Shown here one piece after another: positions 20,001-47,557 of a stretch of DNA of 64,000 nucleotides. The stretch is from IMG/VR virus record IMGVR_UViG_2639762822_000001. The stretch is one strand, 5' to 3'. Each line of letters begins with the position of its first letter. Position 1 is the stretch's first letter. Position numbers and translations under genes: made by a program. The DNA is from a virus. Taxonomy: Duplodnaviria > Heunggongvirae > Uroviricota > Caudoviricetes. The notes beneath the pieces were generated by a model. The model ran no database searches. It saw only the letters and a list, made by a program, of their open reading frames with translations, and was not told the DNA's origin.

Positions 20001-20593
20001 GCCACTTTCATCGCCCGGACGTTAATCTGGTCGTAGAATGGGGTAGGGTGCGGATAAACTACGCTGTAAAAGTTCTCTCGCCCGCCAGCACTTACAAGCG
20101 TGCCAATGATCTTCGCGAAATCGCGGCGCTGGAAGACACTGCCAATGTCAGAGGTCAGAAGGATAATGTTGCCTTTGGCATACGCGTCTGCCAGTTGGTG
20201 GAGTGCCAGGCGCGGAACGAAGTAAAATTGCTCGCGCTTGTTGGCCAGGGTCATCAGCTCACACACGTCACGATAGCCCTGTTCGTTCTTAATCAGAGCG
20301 GTGAAGCTGTAGCTCCGTTCACGAACCAATGATTCCATACATCCCCCTGACTCTTTCGCCAGGCGAGCGCGGTGCTCATACATAGGATCATCGACAATAT
20401 TCAGCTTTACACCACAAATAACAGCGATGTCGTCACCCGCGGCGCGCTGAAGGGGAATGACGCTGGCAATGTTCATGCTGTCAGCGGAAATCACAGCGGT
20501 GTAGCCCGCGTCTCTGGCTACCTTAACCGCGTTGTCTGCTTTAAGAGCCGATTCCCCAAGTGAGAAATCAGTTCTGACCATCAGAGCCTTCAT
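17075..20593 (-). CDS. dnaE: DNA polymerase III alpha subunit (DnaE-type, N-terminal PHP domain)
   Basis: 1172 aa; PHP N-terminus; palm motif [43 protein letters not shown]; start context AAAGGTAAAAACACATG. Confidence 0.9.
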   Translation of the reverse strand: [1172 protein letters not shown]

Positions 20594-24430: not shown

Positions 24431-24545
24431 TAGAATTTCCTTGTTTTTAAAACAATTTGTTTTCTGATGTGTGAAATTTATCACTGTACGAACAGGCCGC
24501 TAAACTGTTCGTACAGGTCAACTTAGGGGGATCAGGGAAGGACGT

Positions 24546-24767
24546 TTAGTTCGTTCTGACTGCTAAGGAGCCGCAGCCGGTATTGATGAGTGTGAAGCGC
24601 TTATCACAAAGTTCGAAGGTAAAGGCGGTGGCGTCACCCATATCGAGGGAAATCTGTTTTGCTGGAAGGTCGGCTAGGATTGCTGCCACCTTTTCCTCGT
24701 GCAAAGAGAAAATATGGCCAACTTCAAGTTCGTTCAAATTACAGGCTATTTTTTCCATTTCATTCAT
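24546..24767 (-). CDS. hypothetical protein
   Basis: 73-aa ORF. Confidence 0.35.
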   Translation of the reverse strand: MNEMEKIACNLNELEVGHIFSLHEEKVAAILADLPAKQISLDMGDATAFTFELCDKRFTLINTGCGSLAVRTN

Positions 24768-25019: not shown

Positions 25020-25400
25020 ATGGCTACCAACGAAGCTAAACAAGGTCGCTACGCCGCCTATATCGACTCTCTAATCACAATTTCCCCTAAAAGTCAGGCC
25101 ACTATCGCTAAGGAAATTGGGTATAAAAACCCTAACAATCTGTCACTTATCAAAAGTGGCAAAATTCCTTTGCCGGTGGACAAGGTTCGCCCGTTGGCCG
25201 TCTCTTTGGATGCTGACCCAGTACGCCTCATGCTCATGGTTCTCGAAGAGCGTCACCCGGAGCTTCTTGAGTTCTTCCGAGATGAAGGCACGGCTCCGCT
25301 TTCTCAAGACGAAAAACAGGTACTGGATGCTTTTCGCAAGCGTTTCGATGGTCAACAAGGTGCTTCAGAACAGGTCGTCGAGGCCATCAAGTCAATGTGA
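25020..25400 (+). CDS. helix-turn-helix (XRE/Cro-C1-like) transcriptional regulator
   Basis: QATIAKEIGYKNPNNLSLIKSGK HTH-like segment; divergent from upstream genes and convergent with the recombinase gene. Confidence 0.5.
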   Translation: MATNEAKQGRYAAYIDSLITISPKSQATIAKEIGYKNPNNLSLIKSGKIPLPVDKVRPLAVSLDADPVRLMLMVLEERHPELLEFFRDEGTAPLSQDEKQVLDAFRKRFDGQQGASEQVVEAIKSM

Positions 25401-26498
25401 GAAATTTATACGAATAAGCTCTGTCGCTAGACGATCTCCCTTGAAATTATGGTCTATCTCGTCTAAATCTGGTTGTTCTACGATGGATGCGATGTGCGCC
25501 GAAAATTTACATAAGGCGTCTCGCATTTCATCCATATAGTCGTGACGGTCGTAAACTCGATCTATTCCCTCAAGGCTATGGTTCATGATTTTACGAGAGA
25601 CTTCCTGATTAATACCCAGGGCAGGGAAATAGCTACGCGCTGTTCTTCGCAGATCGCGAGGAGTGAAGACCTCAACCTCCATCAATTCCGGACGTTCCAA
25701 AATCCTCCGGAGCGCCTGTGATATGGCTACTTTTGACATTGGCATGTCCTTATCGCGTTTCTTATTTGAGGGCACCAGCCACTGGCTGTCTTTCCCATAT
25801 TTAAACAGTTCCTCGACGCACTTCCTCATCAGCGGGCTTAACGGTAGAGCATGTTGTCTGGCCGATTTATTACGTGTGCCTTGATTCCATACATCACGTT
25901 GAAGGTTGAACTCACTCTTCTTGGCCCGGAGCACTTCATCGGGTCGCCTGGCAGCAACGAGACATAGTCTGGCCGCCCACTTTGTCCCTTCGCATACGTT
26001 GAAATAATCCCAGACGTTCCAAAAAACCCAAACTTCGGCGTCCGTTAGCTTGCGTTCCCGGGGCGTAGGTTTGGCGCCACCTGCGACCTTGTTGAGTGAC
26101 ATATCGTTCAACGGCGACGTTTCGATGACCCCCTGGAAGGCGCACCAGCCCAGAAACTGCTTCATCAGGGAAAACACACGCCTGCCCATGACGATCTTCC
26201 CTTCCAGAATGAGCGGGTTCACCAGCTGGTTGACGAGCACCCTACTAATATCACTTACTTTTACATCAGAGATAAAAGGTAAAACATGTATCAAAACACA
26301 ATGGACGGCGATCTCCGGTCGGCGTCTTGTTATGAGTAAAGATAAGCGAGTGAATAACAAGAAGGCATCTGAAAACTTCATCTCGCCACTTACCAGAGAG
26401 GCTGCCATCGCATTCATTTGCGAAGCCCGTTCCAGAAACTCAATCGCTTCTCGTGAGGTGTTTTCGGCTGCGCGTGCTCGATCAAACGAATTTTTCAT
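25392..26498 (-). CDS. tyrosine recombinase (phage integrase family; integrase or multimer-resolution recombinase)
   Basis: C-terminal catalytic pattern FTPRDLRRTARS ... IMNHS ... VYDRHDY (R, H-x-x-R-like, His, Tyr nucleophile). Confidence 0.75.
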   Translation of the reverse strand: MKNSFDRARAAENTSREAIEFLERASQMNAMAASLVSGEMKFSDAFLLFTRLSLLITRRRPEIAVHCVLIHVLPFISDVKVSDISRVLVNQLVNPLILEGKIVMGRRVFSLMKQFLGWCAFQGVIETSPLNDMSLNKVAGGAKPTPRERKLTDAEVWVFWNVWDYFNVCEGTKWAARLCLVAARRPDEVLRAKKSEFNLQRDVWNQGTRNKSARQHALPLSPLMRKCVEELFKYGKDSQWLVPSNKKRDKDMPMSKVAISQALRRILERPELMEVEVFTPRDLRRTARSYFPALGINQEVSRKIMNHSLEGIDRVYDRHDYMDEMRDALCKFSAHIASIVEQPDLDEIDHNFKGDRLATELIRINFSH

Positions 26499-26524
26499 AG
26501 TCCAATCACTTAGTTAGCCGCAAT

Positions 26525-26544
26525 ACTGTATGCATAAACAGTAT
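26525..26544. promoter_or_regulatory. LexA (SOS) box upstream of the recombinase gene
   Basis: TACTGTATGCATAAACAGTA fits TACTG(TA)5CAGTA / CTGT-N8-ACAG, 27-46 bp upstream of the recombinase start. Confidence 0.6.
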
Positions 26545-26595
26545 ATTAGGCATTGTTTCTTATGGGATCAAGCCTAACGTTACAGTGATTTTACC

Positions 26596-26628
26596 AATGA
26601 TTCCATACTTAATAGGTATGGAATCATT
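26596..26628. other. lox/dif-like recombination site candidate (13-bp perfect inverted arms, 7-bp spacer)
   Basis: AATGATTCCATAC-TTAATAG-GTATGGAATCATT about 100 bp upstream of the tyrosine recombinase gene. Confidence 0.5.
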
Positions 26629-26766
26629 TAAGGTCGATATCTTTAAATCTGAAGGATTTTTGTGTACCGTTTTAGCAATGGCAAAAATGCGGTATACCCA
26701 TGCACTCCCATGGTCGGTTAGGGTACAATATGCCAACGTATACTAATAATGAGGGATTGAAGGTAG

Positions 26767-27306
26767 ATGCACGCGCATAAGTTGGTAACACCAGGCTTGG
26801 CTTCGCTCCCTGGCGATCTGTCCTACCTAGATATAGAGTTTGTTTTTTCCGGAAATGAGACGCGTAAAGCTTGCTACCGCTTAGTCTTCTGCCCACCTTC
26901 ATTAGATCCAGTTGCTGCGGAAACCATGCACGGTATGTTGGGTACTGATGTTAATTCGTTGTGTGTATCAGTAGTTAGCTTTGTCGACATGGTTCAGCTT
27001 GACAGGCAACAGGAACAAATAGACAATCCAGTTGTTGGCGAGGAACCGGTTAACCTGTTCGCTAAACCGGAAGGGGCCTTTAACCTTACTTTGGGCGAAC
27101 TACAGTATCTTTACGGTACTTTAGTTGACTTCATGATCAAAGTTGCCGACAATGAAGGCATACAAGTTTTGTTCTTTGCAGCTGAACGCGAAGAACTGAT
27201 AGCCACATACGAAAGATATGTGAAGAGGTTTACACGAGATCGTGGCCTAACTTACTTAAATGACGGAGCTTCCTATGCGATACGAACGCAACACTACCCA
27301 GAATAA
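26767..27306 (+). CDS. hypothetical protein
   Basis: 179-aa plus-strand ORF. Confidence 0.45.
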   Translation: MHAHKLVTPGLASLPGDLSYLDIEFVFSGNETRKACYRLVFCPPSLDPVAAETMHGMLGTDVNSLCVSVVSFVDMVQLDRQQEQIDNPVVGEEPVNLFAKPEGAFNLTLGELQYLYGTLVDFMIKVADNEGIQVLFFAAEREELIATYERYVKRFTRDRGLTYLNDGASYAIRTQHYPE

Positions 27307-27421
27307 GGGTAAGATTGATTTCAAAGCGATCCATGCTAGCAAAGTCGAAATGATGAAACAGTTCATGACCGCTAAAGCTGAAGCTGAACGCAAGGGTGAA
27401 GTGGTCTTTAAACCACTGTAA
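27275..27421 (+). CDS. small hypothetical protein (48 aa)
   Basis: ATG with GGAG ribosome-binding site; MRYERNTTQNKGKIDFKAIHASKVEMMKQFMTAKAEAERKGEVVFKPL; followed by a terminator. Confidence 0.25.
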   Translation: MRYERNTTQNKGKIDFKAIHASKVEMMKQFMTAKAEAERKGEVVFKPL

Positions 27422-27440
27422 TCATTCGCTAGCAGTTATG

Positions 27441-27470
27441 AAAAGGCCCATACGGGCCTTTTTTGTTTTT
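27441..27470. terminator. bidirectional rho-independent terminator
   Basis: AAAAGGCCC-ATAC-GGGCCTTTTTT. Confidence 0.55.
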
Positions 27471-32122: not shown

Positions 32123-32255
32123 TGGTGCCGGTTAACGGACTCGAACCGTTGACCTCTGGCCTAACATCGGATCGTTGTCATTGACCAGCCATGCTGTCTA
32201 CCGAAGTAGAAACGATGCTTTGGCTCTCGCGCTCTACCAACTGAGCTAAACCGGC
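32123..32255 (-). tRNA. tRNA-like gene with extra internal sequence (possibly disrupted tRNA-Asn(GUU))
   Basis: Canonical 5' half GCCGGTT-TA-GCTCAGTTGGTAGAGC and 3' half AGGTC-AACGG-TTCGAGT-CCGTT-AACCGGC-A-CCA with a perfectly complementary acceptor, separated by about 57 extra nt that include a UUCG-tetraloop hairpin. Confidence 0.35.
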
Positions 32256-32332: not shown

Positions 32333-33051
32333 AATTTCGCAGCGGTACTGGCTTCAAAGATAAAGTTTTCCCGCAACTTGCACTTTACGTTAGTGCCAGA
32401 CGAGGCTTGCGGCTCGCTCAAATAGAGCGAAGATCTTAAACACTGCTCGGTGCTTCAGAGAGCGCCGGGGAGTCAGATCTTATTGGATGTATGGAATCAT
32501 CCGTGTTGTGGCAGCTACATGCTAAAACCAGAGGGTATTACTATTGCCACAACGTTGAGGCCACTAAACTAGTAATGTTTGCCCAACATCTTTGTCAGTC
32601 GCTACAGCCTCTGTGGATTCACCTGTATGATTGAAAGAAACAGTGGCCTCAACGTTGTGTGCTGGCTAACCAGGCCAGCCGGGTTACGTCGCCGATCTTC
32701 TTTAACCCAAGACAAAACGACATAAGTAATGGAAATGACGTAACAGGATGAACGGTCGATAACTGAAACCGGGATAGGTGAATGGAATGAGGAAACCAAC
32801 CGCCCATCCTGTTACTTCATCGGAGAGGGCATGGGTGGTGCCGTATCATGCCCTCTCCTGCGTTCTGCAATCACACTCGCTCAGTGTGTCCCATTTCGGT
32901 GACGAGGCTGGAAACTGACCTCGCTGGTGTTTGGCTTATTAGGCTACTGCCAGATACTGATTGTCGTTTGCGGTTATCTTTAAACGTTCAAACAGTCGCG
33001 TACTAACGAAAACAAAGCAATCTTATATATATCATAAAAATAAGTAAATAC

Positions 33052-33357: not shown

Positions 33358-33502
33358 TTTGGCGCCCCTGTTTCATGAACTACACGATATACACGCTTGC
33401 CTATGCGCATAGATTTTGTTTTAAGCTGCTGCTTAACCAGATGTCGATGTGCGATGAAGCCGAGGTTCGCGCCAACAATCAAAGCTAATGTGATGTATGG
33501 AA

Positions 33503-33721
33503 TCATGAGTAAGCACCTGTTTCCGTCAGTTGTTTCAGTAATTCTCGGCCTTTTTTGGTCAGCTGATAGTTCTCCGTTTTGCCCTCTGGCTCGACGTTGG
33601 CGACAAGGTTCATCCTCTCAAGTTTGGCACGCGTTTTTGGCTGCCAGTGTGCGTAGAAACACGACCATTTACTGATTTCTCGAAGGGTGTCTCGTTCCCG
33701 CTTACTAAGCATGATCATCAT
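33503..33721 (-). CDS. hypothetical small basic protein
   Basis: 72-aa ORF. Confidence 0.4.
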   Translation of the reverse strand: MMIMLSKRERDTLREISKWSCFYAHWQPKTRAKLERMNLVANVEPEGKTENYQLTKKGRELLKQLTETGAYS

Positions 33722-36761: not shown

Positions 36762-37832
36762 ATGACAACGTTGTCCAAAAACGTGATGCAACACAGGAAG
36801 GTATTGAAAGAAACTGGTTTGGCGTTTGCCAAATCTATACCGCTTGTTGGACCTCATATTGAGGCAGCGGAAAAAATGTTCACGTTGTTCTCAGATATAA
36901 ATGCGACGACTTGCCGTGATCGATTCAACCGTTACATTATGGGCATTGGTGAAATTTGCGACGATGAGGTCGATATCTCAAGAGAACACTTTTCGGCGTT
37001 AGTCAAAAAGCTCGTGCTTGATGATGAAGACAAGAAAACAGAATACTACATCCGCTTGACGGTAAGCCTAGCCCGCAGCAGCCTTAACGACGATGAACGG
37101 CTACTTTTTATTCATATATTAAGTGAATTAACCTGCTCTGATATCGATTATGCCCGCAAGCTCTACATTGCAACGAATGCTTCCATCAAAGGTTTTAAGA
37201 CATCGGCATCAGCTCAAGCCAGCATCACATCACAAAAAAAAGCACTGTCTCTGCGCTCACTCAATAAGCTCATTTCTTCAGGACTCGTTTACGAGGATAG
37301 AACAGGTGAGATCAAGGCCAATCCGGGCTACACATTAACAAGCGATTTAGAGCGTCTTTTGGGGTTCATTTTCCATAGTGACGATCTACAACCTACGGCC
37401 TTGTCCATTGAATCGAAAGAAGAATATGACGTCATTATTATTGACAGCGACAAGATTTACCGAGGCTCATATCCAAACATTATCTATCGTCAGCTTCGGG
37501 CTGCTGGAGTTAAAGTTTGCATAGAGAAAAGTGAAGACTGTATTGCCTACAAGCTAGCAACGCTCTTCATTTCAGTCAAAACAGGTAGCGGGTTGAACGA
37601 TCTTGGCGAGTGGATAAATTACGGCGATATTAACGTCCTCACACATTTAGATAACAGCACTGATCGCTTTTATGAAAGTGCATTCAGAGAGACAGTCGAC
37701 CGCGAGCATTTTGCACCTGGAGACGACGATTCGTCATTCGATGCAAGTAAGCTAAATAACGCACTAAATAAGGTAGCTGCGTTTGTTTTAGACCGACTAT
37801 CTCCTTCTATAGAAACTAAATTAAAGCCTTAA
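36762..37832 (+). CDS. orphan plus-strand gene of unknown function (possible accessory or exclusion cargo)
   Basis: 356 aa; opposite strand to the surrounding replication genes; 3' end overlaps the primase 3' end by 17 bp; lower GC than neighbours. Confidence 0.45.
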   Translation: MTTLSKNVMQHRKVLKETGLAFAKSIPLVGPHIEAAEKMFTLFSDINATTCRDRFNRYIMGIGEICDDEVDISREHFSALVKKLVLDDEDKKTEYYIRLTVSLARSSLNDDERLLFIHILSELTCSDIDYARKLYIATNASIKGFKTSASAQASITSQKKALSLRSLNKLISSGLVYEDRTGEIKANPGYTLTSDLERLLGFIFHSDDLQPTALSIESKEEYDVIIIDSDKIYRGSYPNIIYRQLRAAGVKVCIEKSEDCIAYKLATLFISVKTGSGLNDLGEWINYGDINVLTHLDNSTDRFYESAFRETVDREHFAPGDDDSSFDASKLNNALNKVAAFVLDRLSPSIETKLKP

Positions 37833-38931
37833 TTCCCCGTACCTTGCTTTGTAGCTCCAACTGTTTGGAGTACGGCTTGGAACGATAATAGGCTTTGAGG
37901 ATCTGCTCAGGCGTCGCGTCACCCGGGTCGAGACCTTCTTCGCCCAGACAGCCCACTTTGACATTGAGTCCGATGCTGGTGAGACGTTTGGCTGCCGACA
38001 TGGTGTTGCGGATCGCTTGCTTTTCGCTGTCCCACATCATGATGACGTTGCGTAATCCACGCGCCTTGAGCGTCAGGAACGCGCCCAACTGATCTTCAGC
38101 ATCCTCATTCATATTTCCGGATAAGTGCATCCCGAACGTGCCAATTGGTTCCACGTAATCCCGCAGCGTCTCTTCGTCGAAAATGGCACGCTTCACGCCC
38201 ATTACGTCAAATGCCCCTTCACACACAACGACCGTTTGTTTTCCGACTGCGTTGTGGCCGTTGTAGAGAAACTTACCTGACGCCGGCAACTGCATTGGGA
38301 AGAGATAACGGCGTTCTGCTGTGCCGGTGACATCACGCCCCTGGAATGTCTTCATGACACCATCCAGATCGTAAACCGGTATGAGAATGCGCATGTCAAA
38401 CACCTGCCCCTTCACTTGGTCGGTGTAGGGATCGACATATGCGTGCTTGCCTTTCACGCAATAACGAAGGTCAAAGTATCTGGCCATTTCCGGCGTTATG
38501 AGACGCTTAACGAGATAATCAGGAAGTCGCCCATCGATAGGCAGTTCATAGTGGCGAGGAAGAGCAACTGGTCCCTCAAGCTCAACACCACTGGATAACA
38601 CCACTTCTTCTTTCTTCGGCGCCCACCCCTGCGAGATTAAGGCATTCTGAACGTATGCCTCGAAATCTCGACGTGATTTGCCACTGTAGTGCTTGAGAAA
38701 AACCAGCTTGTTAAACTGAATCTCTTCGGGGTGATCGCCCGCAAAACATTTACCTACGCCATGAGAGAGGTTGAAATACACTTTCCAGTTTGAGCTGCCG
38801 CATACTGGACACTCTTTGATGTTAATTTCTCGCCCGCGCGTACTCACTCCGCCGCGACGATAGATAATGCCTTCAGTATCGAGCCATTGTTCAAAATCCA
38901 GCTCGGTCAGTAACTCTTTCAGGTCGCTCAC
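37816..38931 (-). CDS. DNA primase (DnaG-like zinc-binding domain plus TOPRIM)
   Basis: CPVCGSSNW...CFAGDH zinc ribbon; TOPRIM VVVCEGAFDVMGV; GTG start. Confidence 0.85.
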   Translation of the reverse strand: MSDLKELLTELDFEQWLDTEGIIYRRGGVSTRGREINIKECPVCGSSNWKVYFNLSHGVGKCFAGDHPEEIQFNKLVFLKHYSGKSRRDFEAYVQNALISQGWAPKKEEVVLSSGVELEGPVALPRHYELPIDGRLPDYLVKRLITPEMARYFDLRYCVKGKHAYVDPYTDQVKGQVFDMRILIPVYDLDGVMKTFQGRDVTGTAERRYLFPMQLPASGKFLYNGHNAVGKQTVVVCEGAFDVMGVKRAIFDEETLRDYVEPIGTFGMHLSGNMNEDAEDQLGAFLTLKARGLRNVIMMWDSEKQAIRNTMSAAKRLTSIGLNVKVGCLGEEGLDPGDATPEQILKAYYRSKPYSKQLELQSKVRGIKALI

Positions 38932-46735: not shown

Positions 46736-47557
46736 TTAAACACGAGTTCCATAAATAGTGCCGACGGTCACCCACGTTGGGGCATTACCATTAACAGCAG
46801 CACCACCAGCCCCACCTGCATACGGAGTGATATTTTTCCCACCTCCAGAATGCGAAGCAGTAGCACCAGCGGAACCCAAGTCCCCCCCTCTCCCGCCAAT
46901 AGATGTTCCAAGGCTTGTGGAAGTATACCCTGCACCTGGTGCCGTAAGCGAAGCATTGCTACCGTTGCCGCCACCATTGGGGAAGGTTTTTGTACCACCG
47001 ATACCAAATGGTCGCCCACCGCCGCCGCCTGAATATGTTGGTTTATTATTACCAGCCCCTACAGCGCCACCGCCTCCACCACCGCCTCCAATAATGCCGT
47101 TATTTTGGATGCGAAGTTTAGTTCCGATGGCATTGGTGATTGCAGGACCGCCAGGCTTACCGATGTTGGCATCACCATTTCCGCCGCCGCCGCCATTTCC
47201 GCCGCGTCCCAGCACCATTTGTCCCGAGTTAATCACAAGCAAAATATAAGCGCAGCCGGCAAGCTCGCTTGTAAAATTGAGACATGGCGCACCGGTGGAA
47301 CTGGACACAATGGTTCCGGTGATATTAACCCTGAAAGCGTTGTCCTTCACCCCTAATGATTTGATCTGACTCACCAAAGTAGACCAAGAATAGTTGTTGT
47401 TCGCTGACACATTAATAACCTGCTCTCTGGACTTGCCTACCAAGGTTTTTATCCAGAAAGGAGGACTAACCTGAACAGCTCTACCGGCAGCTGACATCCA
47501 CCGTTGCCCCGTCTCATTCACTGCGGAAGATCCGACCCATCCTGATCCAATCGCCAT
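46736..47557 (-). CDS. glycine-rich tail fibre-associated protein
   Basis: Poly-Gly/Asn/Ser tracts typical of distal tail fibre or adhesin proteins; immediately downstream of the tail fibre gene. Confidence 0.5.
   Translation of the reverse strand: MAIGSGWVGSSAVNETGQRWMSAAGRAVQVSPPFWIKTLVGKSREQVINVSANNNYSWSTLVSQIKSLGVKDNAFRVNITGTIVSSSTGAPCLNFTSELAGCAYILLVINSGQMVLGRGGNGGGGGNGDANIGKPGGPAITNAIGTKLRIQNNGIIGGGGGGGGAVGAGNNKPTYSGGGGGRPFGIGGTKTFPNGGGNGSNASLTAPGAGYTSTSLGTSIGGRGGDLGSAGATASHSGGGKNITPYAGGAGGAAVNGNAPTWVTVGTIYGTRV

Follow-up and report, generated by a model that had tools for sequence, protein, structure and literature searches.

The DNA analysed here is a window of 64,000 nucleotides from the IMG/VR virus record IMGVR_UViG_2639762822_000001 (Caudoviricetes). 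We found that a tyrosine recombinase gene in this window, int (25392–26498, minus strand), and a 33-bp inverted repeat just upstream of it (26596–26628) probably constitute a self-contained recombination module that serves chiefly to resolve plasmid dimers, and that has received a LexA-controlled promoter in phage-plasmids (P-Ps). A first-pass annotation of the same DNA had drawn attention to the repeat and to a LexA box in front of int, and had proposed a DNA damage-inducible recombination step, such as multimer resolution, integration/excision or inversion, specific to this element.

The 2.1 kb surrounding the recombinase matched 252 plasmid records, mostly of 100–120 kb, from Enterobacter, Yersinia, Salmonella, Citrobacter, Cronobacter, and Escherichia. 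The same region is 78% identical to Escherichia phage Cyrano (pLF82), and the int product is 100% identical to a “putative integrase [Enterobacter hormaechei]” encoded on contigs of ~108 kb. Taken together, these matches indicate that the window is part of an SSU5/pHCM2/pMT1-type phage-plasmid. Elements of the SSU5 type have been reported as exclusively extrachromosomal, and mitomycin C is said to induce them (PMC9600943); the literature on them that we searched gives no account of this module, of multimer resolution or of SOS (DNA damage response) sensing. The module itself is spread far more widely than the first pass had supposed, as tblastn located Int homologues, and with them the Int/site pair, on ~940 plasmid records of PLSDB from many Enterobacterales genera. 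They include proteins 47–58% identical to Int on non-phage plasmids of 130–560 kb from Pantoea, Erwinia, and Chimaeribacter. The LexA box, for its part, is common to the SSU5-like group.

Int is a tyrosine recombinase of 368 amino acids with core-binding and catalytic domains, matching Pfam PF00589 (Phage_integrase; E = 7.2e-10, 39.4 bits against a cutoff of 27.1) and the PHROG family phrog_1, “integrase” (E = 1.4e-44). Among 42 homologues, the catalytic residues R185, K211, R284/R285, and Y316 are invariant and H307 is present in at least 90%, while the first histidine of the HxxR motif is Arg281 in Int, invariant in six aligned sequences. An AlphaFold model (pLDDT 86.9, pTM 0.78) has an all-helical N-terminus, and its best Foldseek match is residues 75–356 of lambda Int, an arm-less fragment (TM 0.75, E 2.5e-6). 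Further matches were Tn1549 Int, XerH, and IntI4 (E = 6e-4), with Cre more distant (E ~0.06); a search of PDB sequences with Int alone returned no match and a profile search returned only XerH, at E = 0.038. The Pfam search found no arm-binding domain in Int, neither PF13356 nor another, and PF13356 was found in none of the ~110 clusters, at 45% identity or more, that make up its tight family of ~365-aa proteins with PF22022 and PF00589. The nearest relatives outside the family are P4-type integrases of 414–437 aa that carry PF13356 and are at most 31% identical, and the sole NCBIfam match was to a P4-type integrase domain model, with none to the integron-integrase models. The model and the conserved residues describe an active-looking recombinase of the type that acts on simple sites. 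The family is most likely descended from P4-type integrases, whose arm-binding domain it lacks.

The 33-bp site consists of the arm AATGATTCCATAC (26596–26608), the asymmetric 7-bp spacer TTAATAG (26609–26615), and the arm GTATGGAATCATT (26616–26628). The arms form a perfect 13-bp inverted repeat, and the coordinates given in the first-pass annotation were exact. Its comparison with the core sites of Cre, FLP, and Xer recombinases holds for the lox/FRT-type layout, but a 7-bp spacer between identical arms is nearer to lambda-family cores than to dif (11-6-11) or to lox and FRT (13-8-13). Perfect repeats with arms of at least 13 bp and spacers of 3–12 bp occur three times in the window and in none of 30 block shuffles; the other two are G+C-rich stems between A/T runs and resemble terminators.

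The conservation of the site was evaluated in a set of 80 IMG/VR relatives (Int 80–99% identical, 62 distinct upstream regions) and in a survey of 136 loci with Int 45–100% identical, from which 105 distinct sequences were used for position statistics. Non-phage loci were represented by four plasmid records that we read closely and by 49 loci from a scan of one genome per species. A 13-7-13 repeat stands just 5' of int in all 136 loci, so that no relative was found that keeps the recombinase and lacks the site. Carriers include plasmids of Pantoea, Erwinia, Rahnella, Chimaeribacter, Hafnia, Xenorhabdus, and Photorhabdus, in which int is the sole gene shared with the phage-plasmids; on the non-phage megaplasmids, its neighbours (a TonB-dependent receptor gene, pagP, an H-NS gene, and treZ) are unrelated to phage-plasmid genes. 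The 80 relatives, Cyrano, and pSA20094620.2 all have the same arms, with seven different spacers among them, and outside the repeat the lineages have unrelated DNA. Over the 105 distinct sequences, arm positions reach 2 bits of information against less than 0.8 bits in the flanks.

Eleven of the 13 arm positions never vary over the whole range of Int identity. The remaining two (T>C and T>G) switch jointly in both arms, giving TGATTCCATAC versus TGACTCCAGAC, and the switch follows the protein: the first arm class belongs to Int proteins at least 55% identical to that of the window, the second to proteins 45–53% identical, and Biostraticola has an intermediate, hybrid site. Chimaeribacter arupi, C. 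coloradensis, and C. californicus each carry two Int paralogues with two different arm types (L130–L132 versus L094–L096), one site having AATGATTCCATAC arms and the other the asymmetric pair TGTGACGCCAGAC / TGTGACTCCATAC, which is what avoidance of cross-reaction between replicons in one cell would predict. Strict co-occurrence and symmetric covariation thus bear out the link between repeat and recombinase that the first pass had drawn. Since int is the only shared neighbour, and since the arms are conserved in sequence and not merely in pairing, we conclude that Int, encoded next to the repeat, would bind it as its own cognate site. A full-text search for the arm sequence returned unrelated primers only.

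The same data make it extremely improbable that the repeat is simply a hairpin, whether a terminator, an attenuator or a DNA cruciform, and not a protein-binding site. As single-stranded DNA it gives a stable fold (-12.4 kcal/mol, z = -6.6), and the changes in its two arms are compensatory. However, no T run follows the stem, no terminator was called there, and no Rfam family matched it. Fixation of 11 of 13 arm positions with only two sequence states points to sequence-specific recognition and not to pairing alone, and the repeat accompanies int even where the other genes around it are unrelated. The spacer is palindromic in none of the 136 loci. In one orientation it has the form T...G, usually TTAATAG; relative to int, each arm class contains both orientations, including exact reverse complements. 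We read these flips as hairpin-loop inversions or as free orientation, and they are neutral on whether recombination takes place.

The position of the site suggests a second role for bound Int. At +30 to +35 from the repeat centre lies TAACGT (26577–26582, minus strand), a -10-like element of a promoter, P1, which we infer to be the ancestral promoter of int. Among the 105 distinct sequences, T is found at +30 in 96, A at +31 in 89, and T at +35 in 92. Non-phage plasmids have a near-consensus -10 (TAGAAT, TAAAAT or TATGCT) at exactly this position, with int starting shortly 3' of it, and phage-plasmids retain TAnnnT. The site centre would therefore lie ~42 bp 5' of the P1 start, and from this placement bound Int should regulate its own gene. 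On the other side of the site, the A/T-rich flank CAGATTTAAAGATA (26638–26651, minus strand) contains CAGAWT at -39 to -34 from the centre, with A at -38 in 95 and T at -34 in 87 of the 105 sequences; it is kept in both arm classes, though the remaining flank differs, and is a possible accessory element. Around the core, this short motif is the only conserved candidate for an arm-type site, the lone arm copies lying kilobases away.

Four such lone copies were found in the window, all of them pointing toward the 33-bp site. The arm followed by ATC occurs as AATGATTCCATACATC at 20328–20343 (plus strand), antisense inside a Pol III alpha-like gene, with a Cyrano copy at 47010 despite differing flanking codons; as GATGATTCCATACATC at 32486–32501 (minus strand), ~160 bp 5' of a tRNA-Asn gene, with an orthologous Cyrano copy at 38815; and as CATGATTCCATACATC at 33492–33507 (minus strand), at the start codon of a 50-aa gene, with an orthologous Cyrano copy at 37803. 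A slightly degenerate copy, CTTGATTCCATACATC, lies antisense inside int at 25880–25895 (plus strand) and has decayed in the E. coli lineage. An exact 15-mer scan of IMG/VR returned mostly chance singletons, so that only pairs ~1 kb apart, such as the copies at 32486 and 33492, are informative; this pair recurs in many phage-plasmid contigs. We rejected a coding artefact as the origin of the lone copies, as they stand in different reading frames and partly outside genes, and we also rejected P1-type promoters, as their flanks have no TAnnnT at the P1 spacing. The recurrence of the arm might likewise have marked the repeat as an operator of the repressor of the XRE family encoded beside int or of another phage regulator; this too was set aside, as the repeat travels with int alone into plasmids without those regulators.

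A related proposal is that the repeat is merely an operator, through which Int, or a former recombinase, regulates its own promoter and, at the lone arms, other genes, with no recombination at all. The near -42 placement of the site centre in all lineages fits this, as does the conservation of lone arms at orthologous places in phage-plasmids. We nevertheless consider it unlikely, because a pure DNA-binding protein would not need the catalytic residues, the tyrosine included, that are conserved over 45–100% identity, and an operator would not need the polarity given by an always asymmetric spacer; moreover, in the non-phage plasmids the 3 kb on each side of int are free of lone copies.

Between the site and the gene lies the LexA box TACTGTATGCATAAACAGTA, which the first pass had rightly recognised and had placed at 26525–26544; it occupies 26524–26543, that is, 26–45 bp 5' of the int ATG. 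The motif scan that had been suggested showed CTGT-N8-ACAG once in the 64 kb, at int. The box agrees with the consensus TACTG(TA)5CAGTA at 17 of 20 positions, and none of 100 shuffles reached that. CTGT-N8-ACAG is kept at the same offset in 77 of the 80 IMG/VR relatives while the eight central bases vary, and conserved half-sites around a variable centre are the pattern expected of a protein-binding palindrome. The exceptions are one relative that lost both the box and the -35 element (L050) and two that carry CTGG (L055 and L056).

The box appears to be laid over a second promoter, P2, which we infer from conservation. Its -10 hexamer TAATAT (26543–26548, minus strand) shares one base with the box, its -35 hexamer TTGATC (26566–26571, minus strand) stands 17 bp away, and the box covers -10/+1. 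Both TTGATC and GCCTAATATACTGT...ACAGT are almost invariant in the 62 distinct upstream regions, and the -35 is invariant in all phage-plasmid relatives but L050 and L093, whose LexA box has decayed too. In sequence, position, and conservation pattern, the box looks like a working LexA operator. It occurs in 84 of the 92 loci of the ATTCCATAC arm class versus none of the 44 of the other classes, and is absent also from the Chimaeribacter plasmids, and relative to the non-phage plasmids the phage-plasmids have an extra stretch of ~60 bp that contains P2 and the box. From this distribution, SOS control is an addition made in phage-plasmids. Both the site (136/136) and the box (84/92) stand far above chance by virtue of their conservation.

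Two observations concern the same stretch. The GATC in the invariant P2 -35 (26566–26569) is a Dam methylation site, reminiscent of the cre promoter of P1, which is Dam-sensitive. In a Klebsiella-type relative (L073, IMGVR_UViG_3300045988_154041), a group II intron (1096–2913, sense; Rfam RF02005, 182.7 bits) with a 495-aa open reading frame (ORF) lies directly after the LexA box, in the 5' untranslated region of int.

Expression data from Cyrano agree with LexA control of int. We used the RNA-seq values of LF82 and its prophage (PMC9928086, S1 Table), given as log2(fpkm+5) and averaged over two replicates, in the order LB, B6 (bacteria-only, as far as the source indicates), MB1 (macrophage, 1 h), and MB6 (macrophage, 6 h). 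The int orthologue CYRAN_44 reads 5.6, 6.1, 8.9, and 10.3, in parallel with sulA (7.2, 7.3, 8.4, 9.9), dinI (7.3, 5.8, 9.1, 10.2), and umuDC (umuD 5.4, 4.1, 8.2, 8.9), and with the prophage gene CYRAN_98 (7.2, 9.1, 11.3, 12.2). The grx gene 5' of int (CYRAN_42; 3.7, 5.5, 6.6, 5.7) does not follow. The authors of the same study regard the macrophage as a genotoxic environment (PMC9928086). Cyrano has two perfect LexA boxes only, one at int and the other, TACTGTATGTGTATACAGTA, just 5' of CYRAN_98 (L084 39277–39700, equal to Cyrano 89277–89700). This gene encodes a 129-aa S24 peptidase without a helix-turn-helix domain, UmuD/HumD-like, that rises with the SOS genes.

The surroundings of int allow a further reading of the LexA box. 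Nearly all genes of the region are on the minus strand, the exceptions being a 179-aa gene and a gene for a putative prophage repressor of the XRE type (25020–25400, plus strand; 126 aa; PHROG transcription-regulation families). The latter is convergent with int and overlaps its 3' end by 9 bp, an arrangement also found in a phage-plasmid whose Int is 58% identical. Its Cyrano orthologue is annotated as a putative repressor, is transcribed in the lysogen, and has a weak HTH_19 match; no S24 peptidase domain was found in it. Beyond int on the same strand, in the cro position, is a 73-aa ORF (24546–24767, minus strand; PHROG phrog_2627), whose role here is speculative and limited to the read-through model below. 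Between it and a CobT-like gene lies a perfect 12-9-12 inverted repeat, CTGTACGAACAG-N9-CTGTTCGTACAG (24484–24516), across which Cyrano expression falls ~30-fold, and which may be a terminator or an attenuator.

In that model the LexA-controlled P2 transcript would run through int, antisense over the repressor gene, and into the 73-aa gene, tipping the lysogeny switch with no cleavage of the repressor. LexA-controlled antirepressors of prophages with a non-cleavable repressor are known from coliphage 186 (Tum) and the Gifsy phages. Likewise, a LexA-repressed promoter for AntC lets the N15 prophage, whose repressor is non-cleavable, sense DNA damage (PMC11652158). Here, unlike in those systems, the controlled gene is a recombinase, and antirepression would need read-through or antisense transcription. 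The model would explain why Cyrano and E. cloacae SSU5-like elements are inducible by ciprofloxacin or mitomycin C although the putative repressor lacks the S24 autocleavage domain, and one of Cyrano's two perfect boxes does lie at int. The convergent overlap persists in phage-plasmids with Int 58–100% identical, no convincing intrinsic terminator separates int from the 73-aa gene, and CYRAN_46, the 70-aa Cyrano orthologue of the latter, rises along with int (6.0 to 10.8), with CobT back at 5.9 past the hairpin. However, CYRAN_46 may have a promoter of its own, and the repressor mRNA rises in macrophages (7.5 to 9.9) where a fall would be expected, and no virions are made there. The absence of both box and repressor gene from non-phage relatives also fits, but it is weak evidence, as a single lineage is involved. 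We regard this trigger as a minor possibility, well short of even chances, and one that may act alongside dimer resolution. Equally tentative is the idea that the module has been drawn into the prophage switch in two ways, with P2 read-through as a damage sensor and SOS-induced Int regulating at the lone arm copies.

Dimer resolution by Int at the 33-bp site remains the reading that we prefer. In outline, two Int monomers would bind the two identical 13-bp arms, strand exchange would take place across the asymmetric 7-bp spacer, and dimers produced by homologous recombination would be returned to monomers, as Cre/loxP does for P1 and ResD/rfsF for F. Int at the site would also autoregulate via P1. 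With P2 between P1 and the gene, and with the LexA box on P2 -10/+1 and so downstream of P1, int expression would be low under LexA and would rise once DNA damage inactivates it. A resolution site has to distinguish directly repeated from inverted copies, and a constantly asymmetric spacer would serve this need. Among the options named in the first pass, multimer resolution fits best, because the module is single-copy on plasmids and megaplasmids, because the site is always found with int and never in hybrid form, because Int has no arm-binding domain and no excisionase is annotated beside it, because Cyrano has no other annotated site-specific recombinase, and because SSU5-type elements are reported to exist only outside the chromosome (PMC9600943). 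For integration/excision and for inversion, no second or hybrid site was found. One form of inversion, that of the neighbouring gene, was rejected on other grounds: pSA20094620.2 carries a 185-aa gene that has no relationship to the 179-aa gene of the window.

Much of the same evidence bears on integration, in which the repeat would be the core of an attP site, Int would integrate the element into a chromosomal attB, and SOS-induced Int would excise it. The similarity of Int to P4-type and lambda-type integrases, a 7-bp overlap (generally typical of lambda-family cores), and a length of 0.2–0.9 Mb for some carrier contigs are what one would expect of such a site. All 136 sites, however, are intact palindromes next to int with no hybrid attL or attR among them, and the hosts are plasmids and megaplasmids. 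Neither an arm-binding domain nor an annotated excisionase gene accompanies int, and the reported extrachromosomal state (PMC9600943) also counts against integration, which we therefore hold to be very unlikely.

The DNA on the far side of the site is variable. Single-gene morons are concentrated in the slot (26629–27465) that separates the site from grx, a hot spot with at least seven states among relatives. The shortest state is empty (85 bp) and the longest measures ~2.1 kb, with variation beginning at the outer arm edge of the 33-bp site. In the window it holds the 179-aa gene (26767–27306, plus strand; phrog_28788), a neighbour outside the module, whose Cyrano orthologue CYRAN_43 is expressed 723-fold above the prophage background in the LF82 lysogen. 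Mosaic relatives have exchanged DNA here. One of them (L067) agrees with L005 at 98–100% identity as far as the outer edge of the site and once more beyond ~+1000, while from +17 to ~+1000 it is 99–100% identical to L017 and only ~80% to L005. L017 in turn has a backbone of the L019 type, whereas its cassette, which ends at position -17, is of the L004 type. In both mosaics, one recombination endpoint falls exactly at the 33-bp site, which is compatible with site-specific recombination.

Such a slot recalls integrons and shufflons, and Int might insert or swap moron cassettes beside its site. The layout is indeed like that of intI and attI, with a LexA box at the recombinase promoter, a site 5' of the gene, and one-gene cassettes in at least seven states, the empty one included, that vary from the outer arm edge onward. 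At the far cassette end, however, there is no second site, half-site or attC-like element, empty and filled slots differ by simple replacement, and the distal boundary is the start of the conserved grx gene, as expected for homologous exchange. Int also matched no NCBIfam integron-integrase model, and its fold match to IntI4 is weaker than that to lambda Int. Capture by Int is accordingly highly improbable.

Several points weigh against dimer resolution under LexA control. No recombination product, in the form of a second or hybrid site, is visible in silico, and the mosaic endpoints are equally explained by homologous recombination, since the flanks have diverged and offer no identical stretch other than these 33 bp. 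The dispersed lone arm copies of the phage-plasmids are not predicted by a simple resolution model. More resolvase under SOS conditions or in lytic induction has no evident benefit, and it could sever replication concatemers. Nor does SOS control belong to the module as such, as the box is missing from the non-phage relatives (0/44). Both promoters are read from sequence, and P2 is not listed by the promoter scan because it matches the consensus at only 8 of 12 positions. Finally, the rise of int in macrophages is confounded, as Cyrano toxin-antitoxin genes and some late genes rise there too.

Comparison with known systems places the module among simple-site recombinases of plasmids. Like lox/FRT-type sites in general, it has two ~13-bp inverted elements around an asymmetric spacer of 6–8 bp, and site and recombinase are co-inherited and covary. 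Cre resolves dimers of the P1 plasmid prophage, the role presumed here, and Cre/loxP shares with our module a tyrosine recombinase of a plasmid prophage, a simple site beside its own gene, two 13-bp inverted elements with an asymmetric spacer, and no arm sites. It differs in its spacer (8 bp, against 7 here), in the distant fold match of Cre, and in that the site here overlaps a putative int promoter; to our knowledge, no LexA control of cre has been described. ResD/rfsF of F and Rsd/crs of Salmonella virulence plasmids are tyrosine recombinases with a site just 5' of the gene that serve multimer resolution. They resemble the module in being plasmid-borne and in the site's position; the Int family is closest to P4-type integrases, at no more than 31% identity. 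Those integrases (CP4-57-like, ~415–437 aa) have PF22022 and PF00589, the central and the catalytic domain, in common with Int but own PF13356, without which the Int family forms its separate cluster at 45% identity or more.

Other parallels concern regulation. TnpI of Tn4430 and Tn5401 acts at IRS, an inverted-repeat core that lies beside or over its own promoter, as in our module, and its binding both resolves and autoregulates; TnpI/IRS is, however, transposon-borne and has accessory direct repeats of the same motif by the core, where we found only the short CAGAWT flank. The integron integrase IntI is reportedly under SOS control, a finding attributed to Guerin and colleagues in 2009. Its LexA box over the recombinase promoter, its attI site 5' of the gene, and the variable genes beyond recall the present layout, whereas a perfect palindrome takes the place of attI here, with no attC or second site and no integron-integrase model match. 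The Xer/dif sites cer and psi (11-6-11) have distinct XerC and XerD arms and use host recombinases, unlike the identical 13-bp arms, the 7-bp spacer, and the dedicated adjacent recombinase described here.

Elsewhere in the window, the Rfam tRNA model matched over 130 nt at 32126–32255 (minus strand), where ARAGORN called no tRNA. The Cyrano counterpart is a 76-nt tRNA-Thr, and the element is either a tRNA gene with an insert of ~55 nt or a decayed copy.

Phage-plasmids of the SSU5/pHCM2/pMT1 type occur commonly in clinical Enterobacteriaceae and carry resistance genes, and the pMT1 lineage of Yersinia pestis is among them. Judged from sequence and conservation, their int and its site most likely represent a lox-like resolution module with integron-like SOS control, so far uncharacterised. 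If this is true, the Int/site pair, with two natural specificity classes that are two arm positions apart, would be usable as a recombination tool. The box at int would be the only LexA box beside the lysogeny module in elements that mitomycin C and ciprofloxacin can induce although their repressor is non-cleavable. The compact recombinase family and its defined 33-bp site would then provide a concrete candidate for multimer resolution in these elements, and the same candidate on the large plasmids of Pantoea, Erwinia, and Rahnella.

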